Source of the DNA: Omnitrophica WOR_2 bacterium RIFCSPHIGHO2_02_FULL_50_17 | Lineage (GTDB): Bacteria; Omnitrophota; Gorgyraeia; Zapsychrales; Zapsychraceae | Assembly: GCA_001805645.1 (NCBI GenBank) | Contig: MHGQ01000049.1 | Coordinates: 6,283-64,215, forward strand | Length of the DNA stretch: 57,933 nucleotides | Reading direction: 5' to 3' | Part shown: positions 2,510 through 34,841 of the stretch, piece by piece | How the letters are laid out: the number at the start of each line of letters is the position of its first letter | Position numbering within the stretch: the stretch's first letter is position 1 | Translations under genes and position numbers: made by a program | Notes under the pieces: generated by a model | Told to the model about the DNA's origin: nothing | The model's input: the letters and a program-made list of their open reading frames with translations, nothing else | The model's database searches: none

Positions 2510-3066
2510 AGGGGGAAAACTTCTCTTTTAAGGCATGACCGGATATGGTAGGCCACGATACCAAAGGCAACCGCCACGTTCAGGGAATTTTTTATCCCTG
2601 CCATCTCAATATCAATGGTGGCATCGCCGCAAGGGACAACGGGGGTGGAAATGCCTTCGATTTCATTGCCGATGACAAGGCAGACAGGAAACTGAGGTTT
2701 GAATTCATCATAAGGGATGCTCTCTGTCGTCTGCTCCAAGAGGACAATCTGATAGTGCCTCTCTTTCAAGTCCTTTATGACCGAAAGGATATCCTTATGG
2801 TATTCCCAGGGGACGCGGCGCTCGGCGCCCAAGGCTGTCTTGGCAATCTGGGCATGGGGCGGATAACCGGTTATCCCGCACAGCCACAATTTCTCCACGC
2901 CTGCCCCGTCGCAGGTGCGGAAGACCGCCCCGACGTTATGAAGACTGCGGATATTGTTTAAGATGACACATAAAGGCAGCCGCACCTCTTGAATCTTTTC
3001 TTTCTGCCGCCCGACGATCTCTGTGGGCGTTAATTTACGCACCGCGGACAACTTTGTCTGTATCAT
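2506..3066 (-). CDS. SpoU/TrmH family RNA methyltransferase
   Basis: NIRSLHNVGAVFRT, GNEIEG and SLNVAVA SPOUT motifs. Confidence 0.9.
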   Translation of the reverse strand: MIQTKLSAVRKLTPTEIVGRQKEKIQEVRLPLCVILNNIRSLHNVGAVFRTCDGAGVEKLWLCGITGYPPHAQIAKTALGAERRVPWEYHKDILSVIKDLKERHYQIVLLEQTTESIPYDEFKPQFPVCLVIGNEIEGISTPVVPCGDATIDIEMAGIKNSLNVAVAFGIVAYHIRSCLKREVFPL

Positions 3067-3109
3067 CGCTTCCCCAAATTTTCGATAATAGGGGTATACC
3101 CCTAAAATA

Positions 3110-3550
3110 TTATTTTACTCCCTCTTTGCCCAAATGCAGTTCCAAATCACGCGTGCCGTCATTTAAGAGCACCTTGTCCGGTTTTATGTCCAAAACCGTG
3201 CAGGGGCCGATCCTGCCTCCTATTTCAACAATCTCTCCGTCGATAATCGCGCTGGGCCTGACCGTATCCCACAAAATACCGTTGAGGATAAGCCGCTGAG
3301 GTCCGCCGGAAGAAGAACTGACAAAAGGATTCCTTCCCCAGTCTTCAAATGTACTCTTTTTCTTCGGGGGCACAGGAGTTGTGGGAATAGACCCGCTTAT
3401 TTCCACTGCGCCAGGAAGGATATTCTGAGAATCCGAACCCTGGCTGGGACGCGGCCCGGATCCCAGTACCCGAAACGCACGCACCCACACCAAAATCCCA
3501 AGGACGACAAGGACAGGCAATATAATCTTTAGCGTTTTTTCCCTGTTCAT
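3110..3550 (-). CDS. PilP/GspB-like type IV filament assembly protein
   Basis: N-terminal TM, Pro-rich linker, RNPF motif, LNGILW...AIIDG beta domain; follows pilO-like gene. Confidence 0.65.
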   Translation of the reverse strand: MNREKTLKIILPVLVVLGILVWVRAFRVLGSGPRPSQGSDSQNILPGAVEISGSIPTTPVPPKKKSTFEDWGRNPFVSSSSGGPQRLILNGILWDTVRPSAIIDGEIVEIGGRIGPCTVLDIKPDKVLLNDGTRDLELHLGKEGVK

Positions 3551-3552
3551 GG

Positions 3553-4083
3553 CTATGGCCTTAAATACACATCCAGCGTCAAATTCGATCGGACGCGGGG
3601 AAGAATGGACTCCTCCCGTCGTATCGCAAACTTTTTGACCGCGACGATGCCTTCCGTCGAGTCTTCCAGGACCCCCAGAAACAGCCCCAAATCTTTGTAT
3701 TGCGACTCAATTTCCATGCCAATGGGCAGGCGTTGATACGCCGGATTATCTGTCTTTTCAATTTCCAGCGGCGTGATAGACAAAAAGTTGATGTTGAAGG
3801 CCTTCCCCTGTTTTGTGATTTCATCCATAACCGAAGAGACCTCTTCACGCGCCAGCAAACGCCCTTTCAGAGAAATGCCCCTGCCCTTCTCCAGGGTGCG
3901 ATGCACCGTGTCTAATTCCTGCTCAAGGACGCGCAGTCTCTCGCCGGCCAGACGGACCTTGCCGGCCAGCGGCCATATGAAAATTATAGCAACAAGGATA
4001 ACAACCGCCCCTGCCGCCGACATTATTATAAGTTTACTGTTCCATTTCATGGCTGTCCCCGCCAGGATCATTCGGCCTCGCAA
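3553..4083 (-). CDS. pilO: PilO-like alignment subcomplex protein
   Basis: TM + coiled coil + ferredoxin-like part (LPIGMEIESQYKDLGLFL); downstream of PilMN. Confidence 0.75.
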   Translation of the reverse strand: MRGRMILAGTAMKWNSKLIIMSAAGAVVILVAIIFIWPLAGKVRLAGERLRVLEQELDTVHRTLEKGRGISLKGRLLAREEVSSVMDEITKQGKAFNINFLSITPLEIEKTDNPAYQRLPIGMEIESQYKDLGLFLGVLEDSTEGIVAVKKFAIRREESILPRVRSNLTLDVYLRP

Positions 4084-5765
4084 AGAATTTCAAACTCCGA
4101 GGACTCCGTCTCCTTTTCCTTCTTCTTGGATGTCACCAATTTGACATTCTTGAACAGACCTCTCTCGAGAGTCAGCATAAACTGAGAAAGGATAACCTCC
4201 GCATCCCCCCCGCCTCTGATGACCCCTTTCAGAGACAGCTTATCATCCTCTGCATTCAACTCAACCAGATACATGCGGTCCGCAACAACATGGCTCAGCT
4301 CTTTTAAAACCTCCTGCCAATGGGGACTTTTCTGCCTTGCCTCGGCCATGAGGATTTTCATTTGGTATTCGCTGAACTGCGAAAGGAGACTCTGATATTC
4401 CCGCCCGGCGGCCTCCAGTTTCTTCTCGGACACGCCCCATTGGATACGCATCCCCGCATAAAAGAGGAACGTGATAACAACGAGCGCCGTCGCGACGGCT
4501 TCCAGGGAGACCTTCTCGATGAATCGTTTGGTTTCTTGCTTCAATTCCAGAGGCAGGAGATTGATATTTTCCTCATCCGTAAAATTCGCCGATTCTGCCC
4601 CATGCATCGCCGCACCGACGGCCAAATTGAATAAATGGGATCCCCGGCCATCGCTGACACCTGCCGCCGCAAGTATCTTGGCTGTCCCGAAGGCGTCGCC
4701 GACGGATACTTCAACCCCCAGCTCGCTCTTTAAAAACGCCGCCAATCCCTTCAAAGCGGCGCCGCCGCCGAATAAAAGAATCTTATCCACCTTGCCCCCG
4801 ATGGATTCTTCCCGATAAAAATCCAAAGAGCCCTCAATATCGCCGACCAATTGCTCAACTTCAGGCCGGATAAGGGAAAGGACCTGATTCATCGAAATCT
4901 TTCCGTCAATCCTCTCTTCGGATTCAACCTCAGGGAGACCGCATGTCTTTTTCACCCGCTCTGCCTCTTCCAAACTGAGATCCACTTTCCCCTGCTCCGA
5001 GAGCAGGGTGCTCCTTAGGGCCTCGGTGATATTCCTGGAGGCCACGGACAGCTTACGGGAAAAGACAAGGCGCGCCTGTCTGTAGATATTCAGCTCTGTC
5101 ATGGCCGCCCCCATCTCAACGACGGCAACGGTCTCTTCCCCGTGCCTGCCGGCAGGCACGGCGTACTGTTTTGATCCCGCTAACAGGCTCCGCATGGCCT
5201 CGGAGACAGGAATAAGAGAGGCCGCCTTAAGACCGCACTGCGAAAAGACGGATAATAGATTCTCAACAGTCTCCTTCGGAGAGGCAGCAAGCATAATGCG
5301 CAGCTTTTTACCCCCTTTGTCCGCAACCTCACCGGTGACGGCAAAGTCCAAAACCGCCTCCTCTAAAGGGAAAGGAATGGAATTTTTGGCCTCCCAGTGC
5401 ACGGCCTCTGCCAATTCCTGCCTAGGAATAAGCGGCGTTATCAAATTTCTCGTGCATGTCTTGGGGCAGCTCACGACAGAAACGATCTTCGCCTTCTGAG
5501 TATCCATGCCACACAAGGCTTCTTTCAATGTGCGGACAACAGCCGGCGGCCTATCCTTCTCCTCAACGGAAGGAATTTCAGCGTAAGTGATTTTATGCAA
5601 AGACCATCCTCCTAAGGTCTCGACGATCTGAGCCGCTTTAACCGAACTCGCGCCGATATCGATGCCGATAATAGAAGACGGCCGGCCTAACTTGGCGAGA
5701 TAAGATTTGCACCTAACGAACACTTCTCGGTTTATCTTTAACATCTGTGTTACCTTAACTTTCAC
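4068..5765 (-). CDS. pilM: PilM-PilN fusion protein
   Basis: Actin-like GIDIGASSVK and LFGGGAALKGL motifs, then INLLP, a TM helix and a PilN-like periplasmic domain in one ORF. Confidence 0.88.
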   Translation of the reverse strand: MKVKVTQMLKINREVFVRCKSYLAKLGRPSSIIGIDIGASSVKAAQIVETLGGWSLHKITYAEIPSVEEKDRPPAVVRTLKEALCGMDTQKAKIVSVVSCPKTCTRNLITPLIPRQELAEAVHWEAKNSIPFPLEEAVLDFAVTGEVADKGGKKLRIMLAASPKETVENLLSVFSQCGLKAASLIPVSEAMRSLLAGSKQYAVPAGRHGEETVAVVEMGAAMTELNIYRQARLVFSRKLSVASRNITEALRSTLLSEQGKVDLSLEEAERVKKTCGLPEVESEERIDGKISMNQVLSLIRPEVEQLVGDIEGSLDFYREESIGGKVDKILLFGGGAALKGLAAFLKSELGVEVSVGDAFGTAKILAAAGVSDGRGSHLFNLAVGAAMHGAESANFTDEENINLLPLELKQETKRFIEKVSLEAVATALVVITFLFYAGMRIQWGVSEKKLEAAGREYQSLLSQFSEYQMKILMAEARQKSPHWQEVLKELSHVVADRMYLVELNAEDDKLSLKGVIRGGGDAEVILSQFMLTLERGLFKNVKLVTSKKKEKETESSEFEILCEAE

Positions 5766-7995: not shown

Positions 7996-9213
7996 TTATG
8001 GCGACCTCAAGGTCTTAATCATATCAAACATCGGCAAAAGCATCGAGGCCATGATAAACCCCACGACAGCCCCCAGAATAACCAGCAGGATCGGCTCGAT
8101 AAGCGTCGTCAATTTGCGCACCGAGAATTTTATGGAAGTATCATACAGATCGGCCACCTTATTCAACATATAACCCAATCTCCCCGTTTCCTCTCCGACA
8201 GCAATCATCTGGACGGCATCCGGAGGGAATTCTTCGCTGACTTTGAGGGGTTCGGCAATTCTGTCGCCACGCTCAACGCCCTCGCGCACATTCCGGACGG
8301 CCTGGCCGATAATCTCGTTATTCACCACATCGCGGACAATGTCCAGAGACTGTAAGATAGGAACGCCGCTTTCGACAAGGGTCGCCAGGGTACGGCTGAA
8401 ACGGGAAATGATCACCTTGCGCACCAAAGGCCCGACCACCGGCACGTCTAGCTGCAGACGATCAAACCACAACCGTCCCATTTTTGTCTGAACATATTTA
8501 CGCATGCCAAAGATACCTAAGCCGAGTCCCAGCACAACAAGATACCATGCCTTTTTTAACCCCACGCCGAATTCATAGACAATAATGGTCGGCACGGGCA
8601 GAGACACGTTGCTCTCTTTGAAAATCTCCACGAACTGCGGGATGACAAATGTTACGATTAATATTATAACAAGAAGTCCCGCGGAAAGTAATATCATCGG
8701 ATAAAAAAAAGCACCCTGGATTTTCTGCCTTAGCTCCTCCTGTTGCTCGACATAAACCGCCAGGCGGCTTAACACCAAATTCAGTTTACCGCTTGTCTCG
8801 CCGGCCTTAACCGTATGGATAAAAACCTTAGGAAAAACACGCGCATGTTTCGCCAGGGCATCGGAGAAAGAGGACCCGGCCTCGACCGATCGGCCGACAT
8901 CCTCAATAATCCTTTTCAGCTTTTTGTTCTCGGTCTGCTGGGAGATTGTCCGCAGACTGCTGATAATCGTCAGACCCGACTCAATCATGTTTGCAAGCTG
9001 GATATTAAAAAAAATAATATCTTCAGACCGTATCCTCCTTAAGCGGCTGCCGATACCCTCCAGATTAATTCCCGGGATAGCCTCCCGAATCTGAATGGGC
9101 ATATAACCCATCTTCCGCAGTTTATCGGCCACCTCGGCCGGCGAGAGGGCGTCCAAAGTCCCCTGGACAAGCTTGCCGTTTTCGTCCCTTGCTTTGTAGA
9201 GATATGTGGACAT
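7996..9213 (-). CDS. pilC: Type IV pilus inner-membrane platform protein PilC/GspF
   Basis: MSTYLYKARDENG start at 9213 (the ORF track extension to 9297 is translated repeat); GETSGKL and GEETGRL F-domain motifs. Confidence 0.95.
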   Translation of the reverse strand: MSTYLYKARDENGKLVQGTLDALSPAEVADKLRKMGYMPIQIREAIPGINLEGIGSRLRRIRSEDIIFFNIQLANMIESGLTIISSLRTISQQTENKKLKRIIEDVGRSVEAGSSFSDALAKHARVFPKVFIHTVKAGETSGKLNLVLSRLAVYVEQQEELRQKIQGAFFYPMILLSAGLLVIILIVTFVIPQFVEIFKESNVSLPVPTIIVYEFGVGLKKAWYLVVLGLGLGIFGMRKYVQTKMGRLWFDRLQLDVPVVGPLVRKVIISRFSRTLATLVESGVPILQSLDIVRDVVNNEIIGQAVRNVREGVERGDRIAEPLKVSEEFPPDAVQMIAVGEETGRLGYMLNKVADLYDTSIKFSVRKLTTLIEPILLVILGAVVGFIMASMLLPMFDMIKTLRSP

Positions 9214-9297
9214 AGAAACTAAAGAACTAAGAAACTCAGAAACTAAAGAACTAAGAAACTCAGAAACCGAAAAATGAAAAACCAGAGAACTCAACAA
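9212..9297. repeat. Downstream arm of 8-nt periodic repeats (AGAAACTA/AAGAACTA/AGAAACTC)
   Basis: Perfect 24-nt tandem AGAAACTAAAGAACTAAGAAACTC at 9214-9237 and 9238-9261, then degenerate units. Confidence 0.95.
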
Positions 9298-9681
9298 CTA
9301 TCCTTCAGCCATTTCTTTCTTCCTCACACTGGAACAAAAGGCCTTCAATTGTCGGACTAAATTATCCGCTCTTTTCAGATATCCCTCATGCTTTCCTTCA
9401 TCAATATAGTGATCATCTAACGCACAATCCAGACACGCCACAACTTCATTGACGGAAGTTAAAGAATTATTCAAAAAGCGACTGAAATCCTTGTCTGAAT
9501 ATCGGTCAGAACCTTCGGCAATATTGAGGAGCACAGAATCAAGGGCCCTCCACAATTGCGAACTCAGCGCATATTGTTCTTCTTTGGGAAATATCTTTTT
9601 GGTCAACGTCTTTAAATCCTTACGAAACTCCCTTGCATCTTTATAAACCGGAAATTCCCGAAATCGAAAAATATTGCTCAT
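9298..9681 (-). CDS. Four helix bundle protein (23S rRNA IVP/Avd-like fold)
   Basis: 127 aa; FREFPVYKDA, FPKEEQYALSSQLWRALDSVLLNIAEG, FSRFLNNSLTSVNEV family motifs. Confidence 0.93.
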   Translation of the reverse strand: MSNIFRFREFPVYKDAREFRKDLKTLTKKIFPKEEQYALSSQLWRALDSVLLNIAEGSDRYSDKDFSRFLNNSLTSVNEVVACLDCALDDHYIDEGKHEGYLKRADNLVRQLKAFCSSVRKKEMAEG

Positions 9682-9740
9682 CTGCTTTTCTGTTTCCCGT
9701 TTTTCAGTTCTTCGGTTCTTCAGTTTCTCAATCTTTCTAT
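9682..9740. repeat. Upstream arm of 8-nt periodic repeats, inverted relative to 9212-9297
   Basis: Minus strand reads ATAGAAAGATTGAGAAACTGAAGAACCGAAGAACTGAAAAACGGGAAACAGAAAAGCAG. Confidence 0.9.
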
Positions 9741-11356
9741 TCCTCCTGCGTCACGCGCAGGACTTCCTCCTGGGATGTGAGCTTCTGCGTGACCTTCTCC
9801 AGGCCGTCCTCGCGCAGCGTCTTCATCCCCGCCTTGATCGCGGCCTTGCGGATCTCCTCGGACGAAGACTTCTGTGTAATAAGCTGCCGGATGTCCTCAT
9901 TAAGAATCATCAACTCATAGATCCCCATCCGCCCTTTATAGCCCGTATTCAGGCACGCCTTGCATCCCTTGCCTTCGCAGCCTTTACAAAAAAGCCTGAC
10001 CAGCCTCTGGGCAATCACGCCAATCACAGACGAGGAGATAAGATAAGGTTCAATCCCCATATCCAACAGCCGCGTGACGGCCCCGGGGGCGTCATTGGTA
10101 TGGAGTGTGGCAAATACCAAATGCCCTGTTAAAGCGGCCTGAATAGCGATCTCGGCCGTCTCCAGGTCTCTGATCTCGCCGACCATAATGATATCGGGGT
10201 CCTGTCTTAAAACAGAGCGCAGGCCTTTGGCAAATGTCAAATCCGCCTGGAGGTTCACCTGAATCTGACGGATGCCGTGCAAACGATACTCCACCGGGTC
10301 CTCGATCGTGATAATATTTTTCTCAGGCGTATTTAAAATGTTCAAGGAGGCATAAAGCGTTGTTGTCTTTCCCGAACCCGTCGGGCCCGTGACCAGAATA
10401 ATCCCGTGCGCCTGCTTAACGAGCTTCCGGTAGTGAGTCAGAGTCTCCCGGGCAAACCCCAGTTGCTCCAGCCCCAAAACCGCGCTGGTCGCATCCAAAA
10501 GCCGCATGACGACATTCTCCCCGTAAATGGTGGGGACACACGAGATGCGCAGGTCGATCTGTCTGTTTTCCATCTTCATGTGAAACCGGCCGTCCTGGGG
10601 CCTGCGGCGCTCGGCGATATCCAGGTTGGCCAGGACCTTGATGCGGGAAATGATCGCGGATTGAAAATGCTTCGGAGGCGACTCTTTCTCGTAAAGGACT
10701 CCGTCAATGCGGAAACGTATCGCAAGGCTCTCCTCCTGCGGCTCGACATGAATATCCGAGGCGCCTTCCCTGACAGCCTCCATCACCATGATATTGACGA
10801 GGCGCACCACGGGGGGTTCATCGGCGATACCTGCAAGACGCTTGAGCTCGACCTCTTCGCCGTCCTTGATGCCCAATTTGTGTTCATCCAACCCCTTAAT
10901 CACCTCTTCCATGCTGCCCCGCACCCCGTAGTATTCATCGAGGGCCTTCTTGATTTCCGCCTCCGTGGAGACGGCCGGCTCGACAGTCAACCCCGTATTC
11001 ATCCTCACCTCATCCAGGGCAAAAATATTCATAGGATCCGCCATCGCGCATGTAACATTCCTGCCGATCTTCAAGATGGGAATCAATTGGTATTTCCGTG
11101 CCAATACCTCCGGCACACAGTCAATGACCTTGGTGTCAATCAGATAATTGCTCAGCTCGATGCGCGGGATATCCATCTGCCTGGCCAGGAAGCTGACCAT
11201 ATCCTCTTCGCTGATGGCCCCCTTCTCAACCAAAACTTTTCTCAAAGGCCTGCCTGTCTTCCTCTCTTCTTCCTGGGCCTCCTGCCATACCTTTGAGGTA
11301 ATCACCCCCTGCTCCAGCAGCCATTCCCCTAAAGATTTTTTCTCTCGTCGTGGCAT
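9737..11356 (-). CDS. pilB: PilB/GspE assembly ATPase
   Basis: MshEN-like N-terminus, ASDIHVEP, Walker A GPTGSGKTTT, TIEDPVE, LRQDPDIIMVGEIRD, TGHLVFATLHTN, CxxC pairs. Confidence 0.95.
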   Translation of the reverse strand: MPRREKKSLGEWLLEQGVITSKVWQEAQEEERKTGRPLRKVLVEKGAISEEDMVSFLARQMDIPRIELSNYLIDTKVIDCVPEVLARKYQLIPILKIGRNVTCAMADPMNIFALDEVRMNTGLTVEPAVSTEAEIKKALDEYYGVRGSMEEVIKGLDEHKLGIKDGEEVELKRLAGIADEPPVVRLVNIMVMEAVREGASDIHVEPQEESLAIRFRIDGVLYEKESPPKHFQSAIISRIKVLANLDIAERRRPQDGRFHMKMENRQIDLRISCVPTIYGENVVMRLLDATSAVLGLEQLGFARETLTHYRKLVKQAHGIILVTGPTGSGKTTTLYASLNILNTPEKNIITIEDPVEYRLHGIRQIQVNLQADLTFAKGLRSVLRQDPDIIMVGEIRDLETAEIAIQAALTGHLVFATLHTNDAPGAVTRLLDMGIEPYLISSSVIGVIAQRLVRLFCKGCEGKGCKACLNTGYKGRMGIYELMILNEDIRQLITQKSSSEEIRKAAIKAGMKTLREDGLEKVTQKLTSQEEVLRVTQEE

Positions 11357-31821: not shown

Positions 31822-33066
31822 TCATGAGATCAACACGTTCATCCTAAGAATCGGAAGCAGCATGGCGATGACCGCAAATCCGACCAGGACAACAATTGCG
31901 ATAAGAACAACGGGCCCCAACAGCGATATCATCAACCGGACAGTCTGCTCGGACTGCCTCTCCAGCGTATCCGCCATCTTAAAGAGGCTTTCCTCCAGCC
32001 GTCCGGCCTCCTCCCCGACGGAAACCATGGAGACCGCCATCTCTGGGAAAAAAGCGCTTTTCTGAAACGCCGCCCTCAGCGTCGATCCGTCGCCCACCTC
32101 ATGCGATATTCCTCGGATGGCCTCGCTTAATACCGTATTACCGACAACAGGATACACCGCATTTAAGGCAGAGGTGATGGGAACCCCGTTTTCCAGCAGC
32201 GCGCCTAATGTCCGCGCAAACCGCCCGATTTCAACGACCTTTATAAATTCGCCCAGGAAAGGAAGCCGCAGTTTCCAATCGTCAAACCACAAACGCCCCT
32301 TTGCAGAATTGACCCATCGATTCCCATATATCCCCCCTAGGACGATAACGCTGAACAGCCACCACCAATGGCGGGCAAAAAATCCGCTCACGCGCATCAA
32401 CACAAGAGTCGGCAGAGGCAGAGCCTCATCAAAATCATCAAACATAATGGACAAACGGGGGATGACGAAGACCAGAAGGACAACCACCGTCAAAACGCCC
32501 ACCGCAAGAATCAATAAGGGGTAAGTCAGGCTTGAGCGGACTTTGCTGCGTATCTCATAATCCTTTTCAAGATGGCTGGCGAGCCGCTCCAGCACCTTAT
32601 CCAAATGCCCGCCCACCTCGCCGGTTCTGGCCATATTCACATAAAAGGGGGAAAACAAATCCGGGTGCCTCGCCAGCGCCCCGGAAAACGAACCGCCGTT
32701 CTGAACAAAATGATACATATCATCCACCATATCGCGCAACGGCGAACTTCTCAGTTGATGCAGGACGATCTGCAATGCCCTTAAAAGGGGGACAGAGGCG
32801 CCGACCAGATCGCTGATCTGCCTTGTCAATAACAGAATCTGCTGAGGACCTGCCCTCCGTGGCCCTATCCACGAAGACTTTAAAGTGCGCTGAAGGCTTG
32901 CGTCTTGTTCCTTTCCAGCCTCCGCGGCCTCCACAAGGGTCACATCAATGGGTGCCAGGCCCTGCCGAATAATTTGGACAACGGCATTATCCAGATTCGA
33001 GGACTCGACAATGCCGCTCACAACCTTATCCGGGCCTCCCTTGGCCTTGTATCGAAACGCCGGCAT
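31822..33066 (-). CDS. gspF: Type II secretion platform protein GspF
   Basis: MPAFRYKA start at 33066 with strong SD; GEVGGHL and GEEAGRL motifs. Confidence 0.93.
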   Translation of the reverse strand: MPAFRYKAKGGPDKVVSGIVESSNLDNAVVQIIRQGLAPIDVTLVEAAEAGKEQDASLQRTLKSSWIGPRRAGPQQILLLTRQISDLVGASVPLLRALQIVLHQLRSSPLRDMVDDMYHFVQNGGSFSGALARHPDLFSPFYVNMARTGEVGGHLDKVLERLASHLEKDYEIRSKVRSSLTYPLLILAVGVLTVVVLLVFVIPRLSIMFDDFDEALPLPTLVLMRVSGFFARHWWWLFSVIVLGGIYGNRWVNSAKGRLWFDDWKLRLPFLGEFIKVVEIGRFARTLGALLENGVPITSALNAVYPVVGNTVLSEAIRGISHEVGDGSTLRAAFQKSAFFPEMAVSMVSVGEEAGRLEESLFKMADTLERQSEQTVRLMISLLGPVVLIAIVVLVGFAVIAMLLPILRMNVLIS

Positions 33067-33140
33067 CCTGCCCTCTTCCTCCTCCTCACAACCCACAGCA
33101 CATTCTCATCCGTTCAATGAGCTGCCATGACGTTATAAGG

Positions 33141-34841
33141 TTAATTTTCCTCTTCCTGCGTCACCCGTAAAACCTCTTGGATCGTTGTGATCCCTTTCCT
33201 GACCTTTTCCCAGCCGGCCTGACGCAGCGTCCTCATCCCGCATGCAACAGCCCTTTCTTTAAGCCGGCCCGCGGCTGCCCGCTCCAGGATCAGCTGACGG
33301 ATGGCATCATTAAAAATAAAAAATTCATAGATGGCCTCCCGTCCGCTGAAGCCGGTAAAATTGCAGGCCTTGCATCCCTTGCCTTCGTAAACATCTCTCG
33401 TCGAAGAGATATCCGCCTCTGAGCCAAAGTCTTTGATCATCTCAGGCGTTACCTGAACCGGCATCTTACATTTGGGACAGATAATACGGACCAAACGCTG
33501 GGCGATAAAATCCTCCACCGTGCTGGTAATCAGATAAGGCTCCACCCCCATGTCCAAAAGCCTCGTGACGCCGCTGGCGGCGTCATTGGTGTGCAGCGTG
33601 GAGAAAATCAAATGACCCGTCAAGGCAATCTGAACGGAGATCTGGGCGGTCTCCCTATCGCGGACCTCACCCACCATCATAATATCGGGATCGTGCCTGA
33701 GCATCGAACGCAGGCCATGGGCGAAACTCAGGCCTATCGCCGGATTGACCTGAATCTGGATAATCCCTTTAAGCTGATACTCGATAGGGTCCTCAATGGT
33801 GATAATCTTTTTCTCCTGCGTATTGATATGCGCCAGACAAGAGTAAAGGGTTGTGGTCTTTCCCGAACCCGTCGGGCCCGTCAAGAATATAATCCCATGC
33901 GGTTTCTTAATCAAACCTTCCAAGAGACTTTTCTCTCTTTCCGAAAGTCCCAATTCCTCAAGGCTGTAAAGCCGGGTGGTATTGAGAATACGCAGGACAA
34001 CGCTCTCCCCGTAAGGTGTCGGAATAAACGAAACCCTTAAGTCAAGGTCGATGTCCCCCACACACACCTTAAACCGGCCGTCCTGCGGCATCCTCTTCTC
34101 GGCGATGTTCAGGTTCGATAGAATCTTAATGCGGGAGACAATCGCCTCCCGGAAATGTTTGATGTCGGGGGGGACGCGCGCATCGTATAAAACCCCGTCC
34201 ACGCGGTAGCGCACCTGCAGCCCGCCCTCAAAGGGCTCAATATGGATATCCGTTGCGCGATCCCTATAGGCCTCCAGGAGAATCTGGTTGAAGAATTTGC
34301 TGATGGAGGCCTCGGACTGTGTCTCCTCGATATTGGTGACCTCGCGGGCGGCCTGGACAACCGGCTGAGCGGTATCCATCATCCGCTCAATCGTCTCGGC
34401 CCCGATGCCGTAATACCGGCGGATGGCCTCCAGAATTTCCCTCTGTCCCGACAAAACAGGATTTAACCGGGCGTCCACCACAAGCCCTATTTCATCCAAA
34501 AGATGGATATCCCAAGGCCTCGTTGTTGCAATCGTGAGTGTATCGTTTTCTAACCGTAAGGGGATAACCTGATAATGACTGACAAACTGGGCGGGGATTT
34601 TTTTTATAACCTCAGCGGAAATTTCGATATCTCTGAGAGTGACATAAGCCACTCCCATCTCGTGGGCCAGGACCGGCAAAATCGCGGTCTCATCGTCGAT
34701 GAAACCAAGCTCCAAAAGGATTACCTTAAGCTCTTTTCCTGTCTCTTCCTGTTTCTTAAGGGCGAGACCCAGCTGCTCGGAGGTGATGATATGTTTGTCA
34801 ACAAGCAACGGCCCTAAAACTTTACTCTCAGGAAGGGTCAT
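33141..34841 (-). CDS. gspE: Type II secretion ATPase GspE
   Basis: ATDIHIEP, GPTGSGKTTT, LRHDPDIMMVGEVRD, TGHLIFSTLHTN, CPKC/CKAC. Confidence 0.95.
   Translation of the reverse strand: MTLPESKVLGPLLVDKHIITSEQLGLALKKQEETGKELKVILLELGFIDDETAILPVLAHEMGVAYVTLRDIEISAEVIKKIPAQFVSHYQVIPLRLENDTLTIATTRPWDIHLLDEIGLVVDARLNPVLSGQREILEAIRRYYGIGAETIERMMDTAQPVVQAAREVTNIEETQSEASISKFFNQILLEAYRDRATDIHIEPFEGGLQVRYRVDGVLYDARVPPDIKHFREAIVSRIKILSNLNIAEKRMPQDGRFKVCVGDIDLDLRVSFIPTPYGESVVLRILNTTRLYSLEELGLSEREKSLLEGLIKKPHGIIFLTGPTGSGKTTTLYSCLAHINTQEKKIITIEDPIEYQLKGIIQIQVNPAIGLSFAHGLRSMLRHDPDIMMVGEVRDRETAQISVQIALTGHLIFSTLHTNDAASGVTRLLDMGVEPYLITSTVEDFIAQRLVRIICPKCKMPVQVTPEMIKDFGSEADISSTRDVYEGKGCKACNFTGFSGREAIYEFFIFNDAIRQLILERAAAGRLKERAVACGMRTLRQAGWEKVRKGITTIQEVLRVTQEEEN

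Follow-up and report, generated by a model that had tools for sequence, protein, structure and literature searches.

A repeat-armed four-helix-bundle cassette inserted at the pilB–pilC junction of an Omnitrophica bacterium

Organization of the pilB–pilC junction

The stretch of DNA analysed here, 57,933 nt of contig MHGQ01000049.1 from Omnitrophica WOR_2 bacterium RIFCSPHIGHO2_02_FULL_50_17 (hereafter the window), carries a pilus operon in which pilB and pilC are separated by a small cassette that encodes a four-helix-bundle (4HB) protein between two complementary repeat arms. Positions at this locus are window positions, and pilB, the cassette and pilC all lie on the minus strand. The upstream host gene, pilB (9737..11356), encodes a GspE-type pilus assembly ATPase (PF00437, 2.6e-141; PF05157; TIGR02538-like). 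Its 3′ end reads ...CAGGAGGAATAG, with the final codons CAG GAG GAA and a TAG stop at 9737–9739. The downstream host gene, pilC (7996..9213), encodes a GspF-type platform protein (PF00482 at 1e-61); it starts at the ATG 9213–9211 (MSTYLYKARDENGK...), and its N-terminus aligns with those of relatives beginning MPTYLYKARDENGK. The gap from the pilB stop to the pilC ATG measures 523 nt, and the single open reading frame (ORF) inside it is a 127-aa 4HB gene (9298..9681) of the type annotated as 23S_rRNA_IVP, 'S23p' or Avd-like (PF05635, TIGR02436).

The two arms enclose this gene. The 5′ arm (9686..9729) consists of about five purine-rich tandem 8-nt units, recognized from repeat families and from an array called by Tandem Repeats Finder (TRF), and ends 5 nt ahead of the 4HB ATG. 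The 3′ arm (9214..9297) consists of about ten pyrimidine-rich 8-nt units complementary to the 5′ arm, recognized from a repeat family and TRF, and abuts the pilC ATG. The 5′ arm is built of AGAAACTG/AAGAACCG/AAGAACTG-type units, the five being GAGAAACT, GAAGAACC, GAAGAACT, GAAAAACG and GGAAACAG, and TRF reports an array of period 8 at 9699–9725. In the 3′ arm the array of period 8 spans 9214–9300 and contains a perfect tandem of a 24-nt unit (3 × 8 nt; 2.2 copies, 100% matches) at 9214–9267. An earlier note on this DNA had described the whole gap as a 127-aa 4HB gene between a purine-rich arm and a complementary pyrimidine-rich arm of 8-nt units, and this description holds in both respects, at the coordinates above.

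The number of units is polymorphic. Contigs of the same population from other samples (L002, at ~190–210, and L088; L-numbers denote relatives' loci fetched for comparison) carry this locus with a 5′ arm that is longer by two 8-nt units (16 nt). A difference of several units is also seen in the 3′ arm between L094 and L095.

Comparison with empty junctions of close relatives

The PilB orthologues 96% (L084), 89% (L085/L086) and 79% (L087) identical to that of the window come from loci sharing the gene order of response regulators, pilB, pilC and pilins. None of these loci carries the cassette, and their pilB–pilC spacing is 7–9 nt. The L084 junction reads ...CAGGAAGAGTAA cccgcgatt ATGCCCACATATCTC, with a TAA stop and a 9-nt spacer; that of L085 reads ...CAGGAGGAGTAA ccagagcgt ATG...; and that of L087 reads ...CAGGAGGAATAG aagaatt ATGTCAACATAC, with a TAG stop and a 7-nt spacer. 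The filled junction of the window reads ...CAGGAGGAATAG AAAGATT, followed by the cassette, GAGAAACTG...TAGTTTCT, and then by ATGTCCACATATCTC. The cassette is an insertion into the pilB–pilC spacer, and its distribution is sporadic, being present in the window and missing from these close relatives. In what seems the simplest reading of the alignment, AAAGATT (9730..9736, minus strand) is the original 7-nt spacer, retained as judged from the empty sites of L087 and L084 with a boundary uncertain by a few bases, and 516 bp (9214..9729, minus strand) were inserted directly before the pilC ATG. The termini of this 516-bp segment, GAGAAACTGAAGAAC... and ...GTTCTTTAGTTTCT, are inverted repeats that match at 14 of 15 positions (GAGAAACTGAAGAAC against the reverse complement AGAAACTAAAGAACT), and they lie exactly at the inferred insertion boundaries. 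The GC content of the cassette is 38%, compared with 51% for the window. The earlier note had taken the gene for an inserted cassette of the intervening sequence (IVS) type and had proposed aligning the junction across relatives; the empty sites in the three nearest relatives bear this out, so the 4HB gene is not syntenic in all relatives.

The junction is followed downstream by pilins and pilM/N/O-like genes and is preceded by two response regulators and a large histidine kinase. On its minus strand the cassette showed no promoter-like or terminator-like site, which implies that it is transcribed within the pilus operon. Of the non-overlapping window ORFs of at least 90 aa, 55 of 56 are on the minus strand; the co-orientation of the cassette is thus uninformative within the window, and the orientation bias described below was established on other loci. 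A second GspE/GspF pair, accompanied by a secretin and a GspG-like gene, occurs at 31840–34829 and is 45% and 31% identical to the studied PilB and PilC. Its junction (33066–33150) has a 74-nt spacer with a strong Shine–Dalgarno (SD) sequence (GAGGAGGAGGAAG) and no cassette. A tblastn search found no further copies of the cassette within the window, and the 8-mers of the arms are not enriched elsewhere in it. There was no Rfam match at E ≤ 1 for the arms or the cassette (9000–9950), and the cassette had no PADLOC match to defence systems.

The public record gives a longer PilC of 433 aa (7996–9297; gene 3385–4686 in L001), with a TTG start inside the 3′ repeat arm, at 9297 and right after the 4HB stop. 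In relatives, pilC begins at an ATG corresponding to 9213, and the 28-aa extension (LSSLVFHFSVSEFLSSLVSEFLSSLVS) is translated repeat sequence. In a set of 56 loci, 12 have a 3′ arm without stops in the frame of the downstream gene, compared with 22 and 15 for the other frames. Because stop-free arms in the downstream frame are not enriched, the 433-aa call is probably an annotation artefact, and an N-terminally extended PilC was rejected as a general mechanism. The comparison exposes an error that recurs in annotation, namely that downstream genes are assigned start codons lying within the 3′ arm.

Structure and conservation of the four-helix-bundle protein

The 127-aa protein scores 93.1 bits against PF05635 (cut-off 33.8) and 90.1 bits against TIGR02436 (cut-off 24). 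A phmmer search of the PDB found 2gsc (Xcc0516) with an E value of 2.8e-10; the solved relatives are 2gsc and 2rld (BT_0352), which have five chains per entry. The AlphaFold2 model of the monomer has a mean predicted local distance difference test score (pLDDT) of 88.7 and shows four long helices, 11–30, 36–59, 63–89 and 95–126. When this model was compared using Foldseek, the template-modelling (TM) scores were 0.84/0.93 for 2gsc and 0.75/0.87 for 2rld. The model also superposes on the Avd protein of diversity-generating retroelements (DGRs), with TM scores of 0.74/0.86 and an rmsd of 1.9 Å for 4dwl_D and TM scores of 0.72/0.82 for 8ub7_E, at 10% sequence identity. A match to PHROG 3206, 'Avd protein of DGR', was found at E 4.5e-7. 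These scores and superpositions agree with the earlier assignment of the protein to the 4HB family of 23S rRNA IVSs, with an Avd-like structure.

The conserved motif of the PF05635 family is GxxRxxxSxxxNxxE (PMC3936711). Its residues R45, S49, N53 and E56 are present and do not vary among 35 homologues; in place of glycine, the first position has Q42, which is likewise invariant in this subfamily. Against homologues with 64–71% nucleotide identity, the proportion of nonsynonymous differences (pN) is ~0.17–0.21 and that of synonymous differences (pS) is 0.72–0.94, the synonymous sites being saturated. The 4HB protein is under purifying selection.

Pairing of the arms

We folded the region 9200–9760 of the minus strand, and both the minimum free energy (MFE) and centroid folds pair the arms along their full length. 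The duplex between the arms has 53 bp and is imperfect, with an energy of −49.9 kcal/mol and a z-score of −3.35 that was equalled by 2 of 500 dinucleotide shuffles. In partition-function calculations, the mean probability that the 5′ arm pairs with the 3′ arm is 0.85, 0.80 and 0.78 in transcripts of 561, 961 and 1401 nt, respectively. The duplex includes eight G–U pairs, and the antisense transcript would form a duplex of −37.5 kcal/mol. Strong pairing in the transcript, as the earlier note had expected, is therefore found, and the 7-bp ATAGAAA/TTTCTAT match that it placed at the outer ends forms the outermost helix of the MFE fold.

A class of repeat-armed cassettes

We surveyed 79 loci from species-representative genomes and 80 from metagenomes, with homologues 44–82% identical to the window protein; the family as a whole comprises 5183 clusters at 50% identity (E ≤ 0.001). 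Tandem arrays were called by TRF at a score of at least 24, with control segments for comparison. Upstream of the gene they are present in 118 of 135 flanks and downstream in 117 of 135, with 103 loci having both, whereas any array at all is found in 26% of the controls. The arrays have a median length of 31 nt, and ~93% have periods of 7 or 8 nt or multiples thereof. Among 133 non-redundant loci, the flanks are significantly inverted-dominant in 109, direct-dominant in 8 and neither in 14.

The repeat unit depends on the subfamily. It is GAGAAACT/AAGAACGG in the close relatives of the window cassette and GACAATT/GACATTT in many bacteria of the candidate phyla radiation (CPR), and the units seen across subfamilies also include GAAACTNA, GGGCTGAA, GACGATGAC, AACAATTA and GGGAGTA. 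The arms of each cassette are complementary although the unit sequence changes between subfamilies. Support for the arms was judged on this basis, since the variable number of units makes a column-wise alignment arbitrary, and the differing yet complementary arms amount to covariation of whole arms. The GACAATT unit is itself nearly palindromic, its two orientations differing at one position per unit. Direct arrays were seen in L011, L021, L044, L046 and L090. Within the CPR pilB|pilC lineage, the downstream heptamer array is direct in L044 and L046 and inverted in L050, L057, L058 and L061.

The neighbours of the cassettes are classic co-transcribed gene pairs. Among the 79 loci, the junctions include pilB|pilC (8), pilC|pilin (3–4), LemA|M48 peptidase (4), def|fmt (3) and atpG|atpD (2), and other hosts are rpsB|tsf and yebC|ruvC. 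Where the neighbours are co-directional (62 loci), 60 cassettes share their orientation and 2 are antisense to them. L071 and L081 hold a cassette of this kind and architecture inside the 23S rRNA. The design thus recurs in more than 100 other loci at operon junctions and inside 23S rRNA, and the window cassette is an ordinary member of a large class of intercistronic cassettes in many uncultured bacteria and some cyanobacteria.

Some individual loci have additional features. The 23S rRNA gene of L071 (9–5311), from a CPR bacterium, contains two group I introns (3051–3714 and 3946–4505) in addition to its 4HB cassette (2495–2854). In the ATP synthase operon of a Nomurabacteria member (L066), two cassettes (972–1367 and 2863–3261) flank atpD, at atpG|atpD and atpD|atpC; their proteins are 58% identical, and both have GACAATT-type heptamer arms. 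In L099–L101, a sigma-70-promoter-like ttgcca...tataat lies between the 5′ arm and the 4HB ATG, ~70 nt upstream of the latter, and some members of the family may accordingly have a promoter of their own.

Mobility, retention and cyanobacterial examples

We compared the identities of the 4HB proteins with those of the PilBs that they follow. In the window, L015, L038 and the CPR group, 4HB proteins 53–71% identical follow PilBs that are only 38–48% identical. Similar 4HB proteins after diverged PilBs indicate that cassettes reached the 3′ end of pilB independently at least four times. Inside the CPR group, in contrast, PilB identity (71–97%) tracks 4HB identity (75–89%), which indicates long vertical retention. 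Omnitrophota and Patescibacteria also encode 4HB proteins 72–75% identical at unrelated loci. The sole ORF of the cassette is that of the 4HB protein, which matches no transposase family.

A tblastn search against plasmids found distant homologues (32–39%) in cyanobacteria. In Nostoc edaphicum pNe_5 (L168), nrdA and nrdB enclose an antisense 4HB gene with (GGGAGTA)n and (TACTCCC)n as its flanks; a segment of 40 nt separates the arm from the 4HB ATG and might hold a promoter. In Calothrix NIES-4105, the nrdA|nrdB junction is empty, with a 16-nt spacer. Together, pNe_5 and NIES-4105 form a second filled/empty pair, again with insertion into an intercistronic spacer, and there is no evident target-site duplication at the Nostoc nrdA|nrdB insertion. 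Plasmid pNsp_c of Nostoc sp. ATCC 53789 carries a 4HB gene with GGGAAAA-type inverted arms. In Pseudanabaena galeata pPg_01 (L169, 1350–1990), the 4HB gene lies between cas6 and cas4, and its flanks are direct heptamer arrays, with CTAAAAG ~15 times upstream and CCAAAAG ~10 times downstream. No arrays were found at the 4HB flanks in Calothrix PCC 7716 (L170), where the gene is antisense between an HlyD-like gene and an ABC transporter gene. The antisense orientation in L168 and L170 departs from the sense bias of 60:2 that holds for CPR bacteria and Omnitrophota. Antisense insertions fit a strand-symmetric requirement, in which the stem forms in the host mRNA either way.

Interpretation of the cassette

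We consider that the element is probably a mobile, selfish cassette of the IVS type, composed of an Avd-like 4HB gene within inverted 8-nt arrays, which was recently inserted between pilB and pilC and whose pairing stem closes the insert off from the host RNA. The cassette would be transcribed as part of the pilus operon, and its arms would pair into an imperfect duplex of ~50 bp that seals the insert off. Since the window cassette shares the structural features of IVSs, the arms most likely act in the host transcript. The stem would most likely make the insertion tolerable by folding it out of this transcript, and it is a probable substrate of RNase III; by analogy with the Coxiella IVS (PMC4990558), excision or cleavage of the cassette at the RNA level is plausible. 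In addition, the stem most likely keeps the ribosome-binding region of the 4HB gene masked once the 3′ arm has been transcribed. A closed stem also covers the pilC AUG, so translation of pilC would need stem-melting ribosomes or processing. Ribosomes that terminate at the pilB stop could melt the base of the stem and unmask the pilC start, in which case translational coupling would be kept across 516 nt; alternatively, pilC might be translated after the transcript has been processed.

Several observations weigh against this interpretation. First, in the comparison with shuffled controls suggested in the earlier note, the whole 561-nt fold stays within chance (z = −1.25), unlike the arm duplex. 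Second, the strand-specific enrichment of G–U pairs, which we considered as proof of an RNA stem, was rejected. The earlier note had pointed out that several arm mismatches become G–U pairs on the transcribed strand; this is literally so, but the numbers in the aligned arms of the window (6 G–U-type against 3 A–C-type mismatches) are not significant, and there is no excess across the class (56 against 48). Likewise, the sense duplex is more stable in 41 loci and the antisense duplex in 38. With neither a G–U excess nor a more stable sense duplex, the complementarity is as expected for inverted repeats at the DNA level. Third, the arms can be very unequal, with at least 12 units against 3 in L005, and of the 133 loci, 8 with direct arrays and 14 with none hold an intact gene, among them L044 and L046 of the vertically inherited CPR pilB|pilC group, which lack inverted flanks. 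Fourth, there is no transposase, reverse transcriptase or target duplication to account for mobility; compared with the empty sites, the junctions of the window (...TAG AAAGATT|GAGAAACTG...AGTTTCT|ATG) show no target-site duplication. Lastly, the enrichment at pilus-operon junctions, in ~12 of 79 loci, is left unaccounted for.

The alternative that survives best is that the arms are primarily terminal inverted repeats at the DNA level, putative arrays to which the 4HB protein, presumably a pentamer, or a recombinase acting in trans would bind and which would be needed for movement or copying, with RNA pairing as a by-product. We regard this as possible, and on balance as less probable than a role in the transcript. 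It would explain the strand symmetry of the complementarity, the coincidence of the inverted termini with the insertion boundaries and the change of unit sequence along with the protein subfamily. It is also favoured by the persistence of arrays in direct orientation (L011, L021, L044, L046 and the Pseudanabaena cas6|cas4 locus), by the antisense insertions in cyanobacterial operons and by the repeated independent insertion seen where similar 4HB proteins follow diverged PilBs. However, the missing transposase and target-site duplication count against a DNA-level role as well, and the 60:2 sense bias together with the absent promoter points to a life inside host transcripts. Moreover, relatives carried by rRNA have to fold at the RNA level, and it is as RNA that they are cleaved (PMC4990558). 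The two explanations are compatible and both could hold: the arms could act in the transcript, and could equally, or additionally, be inverted repeats or protein-binding arrays in DNA.

A wider proposal, which we put forward tentatively and hold to be rather unlikely, would make the classical ORF-bearing 23S IVSs a minority niche of a larger transcript-embedded selfish family in CPR bacteria, Omnitrophota and cyanobacteria. Such elements, each a gene for an Avd-like pentameric protein between inverted arrays of tandem 7–8-mers, would colonize spacers between the cistrons of essential operons and neutralize themselves through the stem, RNase III and retained coupling, and the protein would bind its own arrays, with about one subunit per unit, for copying, possibly together with a reverse transcriptase supplied in trans.

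The earlier note had favoured another function, in which the looped-out cassette places the GGAGG at the end of pilB beside the pilC AUG as its SD sequence, so that the insertion would be non-polar or would tune PilC. Phage T4 gene 38 offers a precedent for a hairpin that shortens the effective distance between an SD sequence and a start codon. A stem closed in the register of the terminal repeats would leave ...GGAGGAATAG-AAAGATT|ATG, arranged just like the empty site of L087, in which GGAGG lies 12 nt from the ATG; the pairing of the arms is robust, and there is indeed no SD sequence for pilC between the arm and the ATG, as the earlier note had observed. This last point loses weight in that an SD-like 4-mer precedes only 19 of 55 window ORFs. 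GGAGG is not conserved either: the 96%-identical relative has GGAAGAG, and in the window GGAGG merely forms part of Gln-Glu-Glu codons. Even at the empty sites, a spacing of 12–14 nt is on the long side for an SD sequence. Furthermore, in the predicted stem GGA forms pairs with UCC, and the first two bases of the AUG are likewise paired, the three AUG bases having pairing probabilities of 0.15–0.96, mostly above 0.6; a closed stem would thus hide the pilC start instead of presenting it, and a 30S initiation complex would have difficulty accommodating a 50-bp helix that adjoins the AUG. At most other loci a gap of 5–25 nt, often containing an SD sequence of the downstream gene, separates the 3′ arm from the start of that gene, and in cyanobacteria some cassettes run antisense to their host operon. 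Delivery of GGAGG to pilC is therefore poorly supported, and we judge it improbable.

Finally, an ordinary, vertically inherited accessory gene of pilus operons with incidental low-complexity flanks is very improbable, since, even though type IV pilus operons recur as hosts and one CPR clade kept the cassette while PilB diverged to 71% identity, the cassette is missing at the same junction in the three nearest relatives and at the second GspE|GspF junction of the window, its GC content is foreign to the window, the same type occurs in many unrelated operons and in 23S rRNA, and significant arms, with units specific to the subfamily, are found at 109 of 133 loci.

Significance

Genes of PF05635 outside rRNA are already known from cas loci (PMC3936711) and from the vicinity of DGRs (PMC10053308), and members have been reported in rRNA insertions of CPR bacteria (PMC11270868). 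Our full-text searches, which left subscription literature outside their scope, found no paper on inverted tandem-repeat arms of 4HB genes outside rRNA, of which a prior description is possible, nor one on the systematic intercistronic placement of 4HB cassettes. Hitherto, bacterial IVSs have been viewed as a curiosity of rRNA genes, and the function of their ORF as unknown and possibly decaying. The loci compared here place IVS-type elements with repeat-built arms mostly between protein-coding cistrons, with repeated independent insertion at the same kinds of junction and with a protein kept under strong purifying selection, which changes the question of what such elements are. The comparative data set comprises more than 130 loci with filled/empty site pairs, and Nostoc edaphicum CCNP1411 and Nostoc sp. 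ATCC 53789 are cultured hosts for functional tests. The cassettes are also a possible origin for part of the heptamer tandem repeats of cyanobacteria. Should the stem indeed insulate host operons, it would suggest itself as a natural design by which genes could be placed in operons without polarity.

Comparison with known systems

The closest known system is the IVS of 23S rRNA, found in Coxiella burnetii, Leptospira and others ('S23p'); IVSs of rRNA are the only relatives of the cassette that have been studied by experiment. Both elements encode a protein of the same family, PF05635, and both are small inserts of ~0.4–0.5 kb whose ORF is in the sense of the host transcript and has a poor SD sequence. 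Both have terminal inverted repeats that form a long stem, and variable-number tandem repeats of 7–8 nt just upstream of the ORF. In Coxiella, the terminal stem has 28 bp and is cut by RNase III, and tandem heptamers (GACAGAT) with a strain-variable copy number precede the ORF (PMC4990558). Excision by RNase III, without religation, is thus known for the Coxiella IVS, whereas the cassette is likened to it from its sequence and predicted fold. The sites also differ: the 23S IVS sits in an rRNA helix (helix 25 or helix 45 type sites) and the cassette in the intercistronic spacer of a polycistronic mRNA. Cutting an mRNA affects the stability and translation of both flanking cistrons, a consequence that has no counterpart in rRNA. 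In addition, the Coxiella ORF is reportedly decaying, whereas that of the cassette is under purifying selection.

Avd of DGRs (4dwl, 8ub7) has the same 4HB fold as the cassette protein at only ~10% sequence identity. Avd itself forms pentamers and binds both RNA and the reverse transcriptase. No reverse transcriptase or template/variable repeat pair adjoins the 4HB gene, the surrounding 20 kb encoding pilus proteins, response regulators and a histidine kinase, and no reverse-transcriptase family is among the 25 of 57 families listed for the rest of the window. With pilB and pilC as neighbours and neither of these partners adjacent, the 4HB gene is not a component of a DGR, a candidate role that we rejected.

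Miniature inverted-repeat transposable elements (MITEs) and repetitive extragenic palindromic (REP) sequences, with the bacterial interspersed mosaic elements (BIMEs) and REP doublets forming hairpins (REPINs) that are moved by REP-associated tyrosine transposases (RAYTs), are small, non-autonomous, intergenic elements with inverted, hairpin-forming termini and no internal transposase. The cassette resembles them in its size, intergenic site and inverted termini, in its many copies across lineages and in having no transposase. Unlike them, it carries a conserved protein gene, its ends are tandem 7–8-mers rather than unique repeats, there is no target-site duplication, and its orientation is tied to host transcription (60:2).

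The short tandemly repeated repetitive (STRR) sequences of heterocystous cyanobacteria are tandem heptanucleotides in intergenic regions. Tandem heptamers are likewise found in the cassettes of the Nostoc plasmids, as (GGGAGTA)n/(TACTCCC)n and as GGGAAAA-type arrays. To our knowledge, STRRs have been described as repeats without an associated gene, and we found no paper linking them to PF05635 genes.

Lastly, group I and group II introns with homing endonucleases, and inteins, resemble the cassette in occupying essential, highly expressed genes, where they are tolerated through removal or neutralization after transcription. The cassette differs from them in having no ribozyme and no ligation, in agreement with the lack of an Rfam match. 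Because it lies between cistrons, its flanks need no rejoining.

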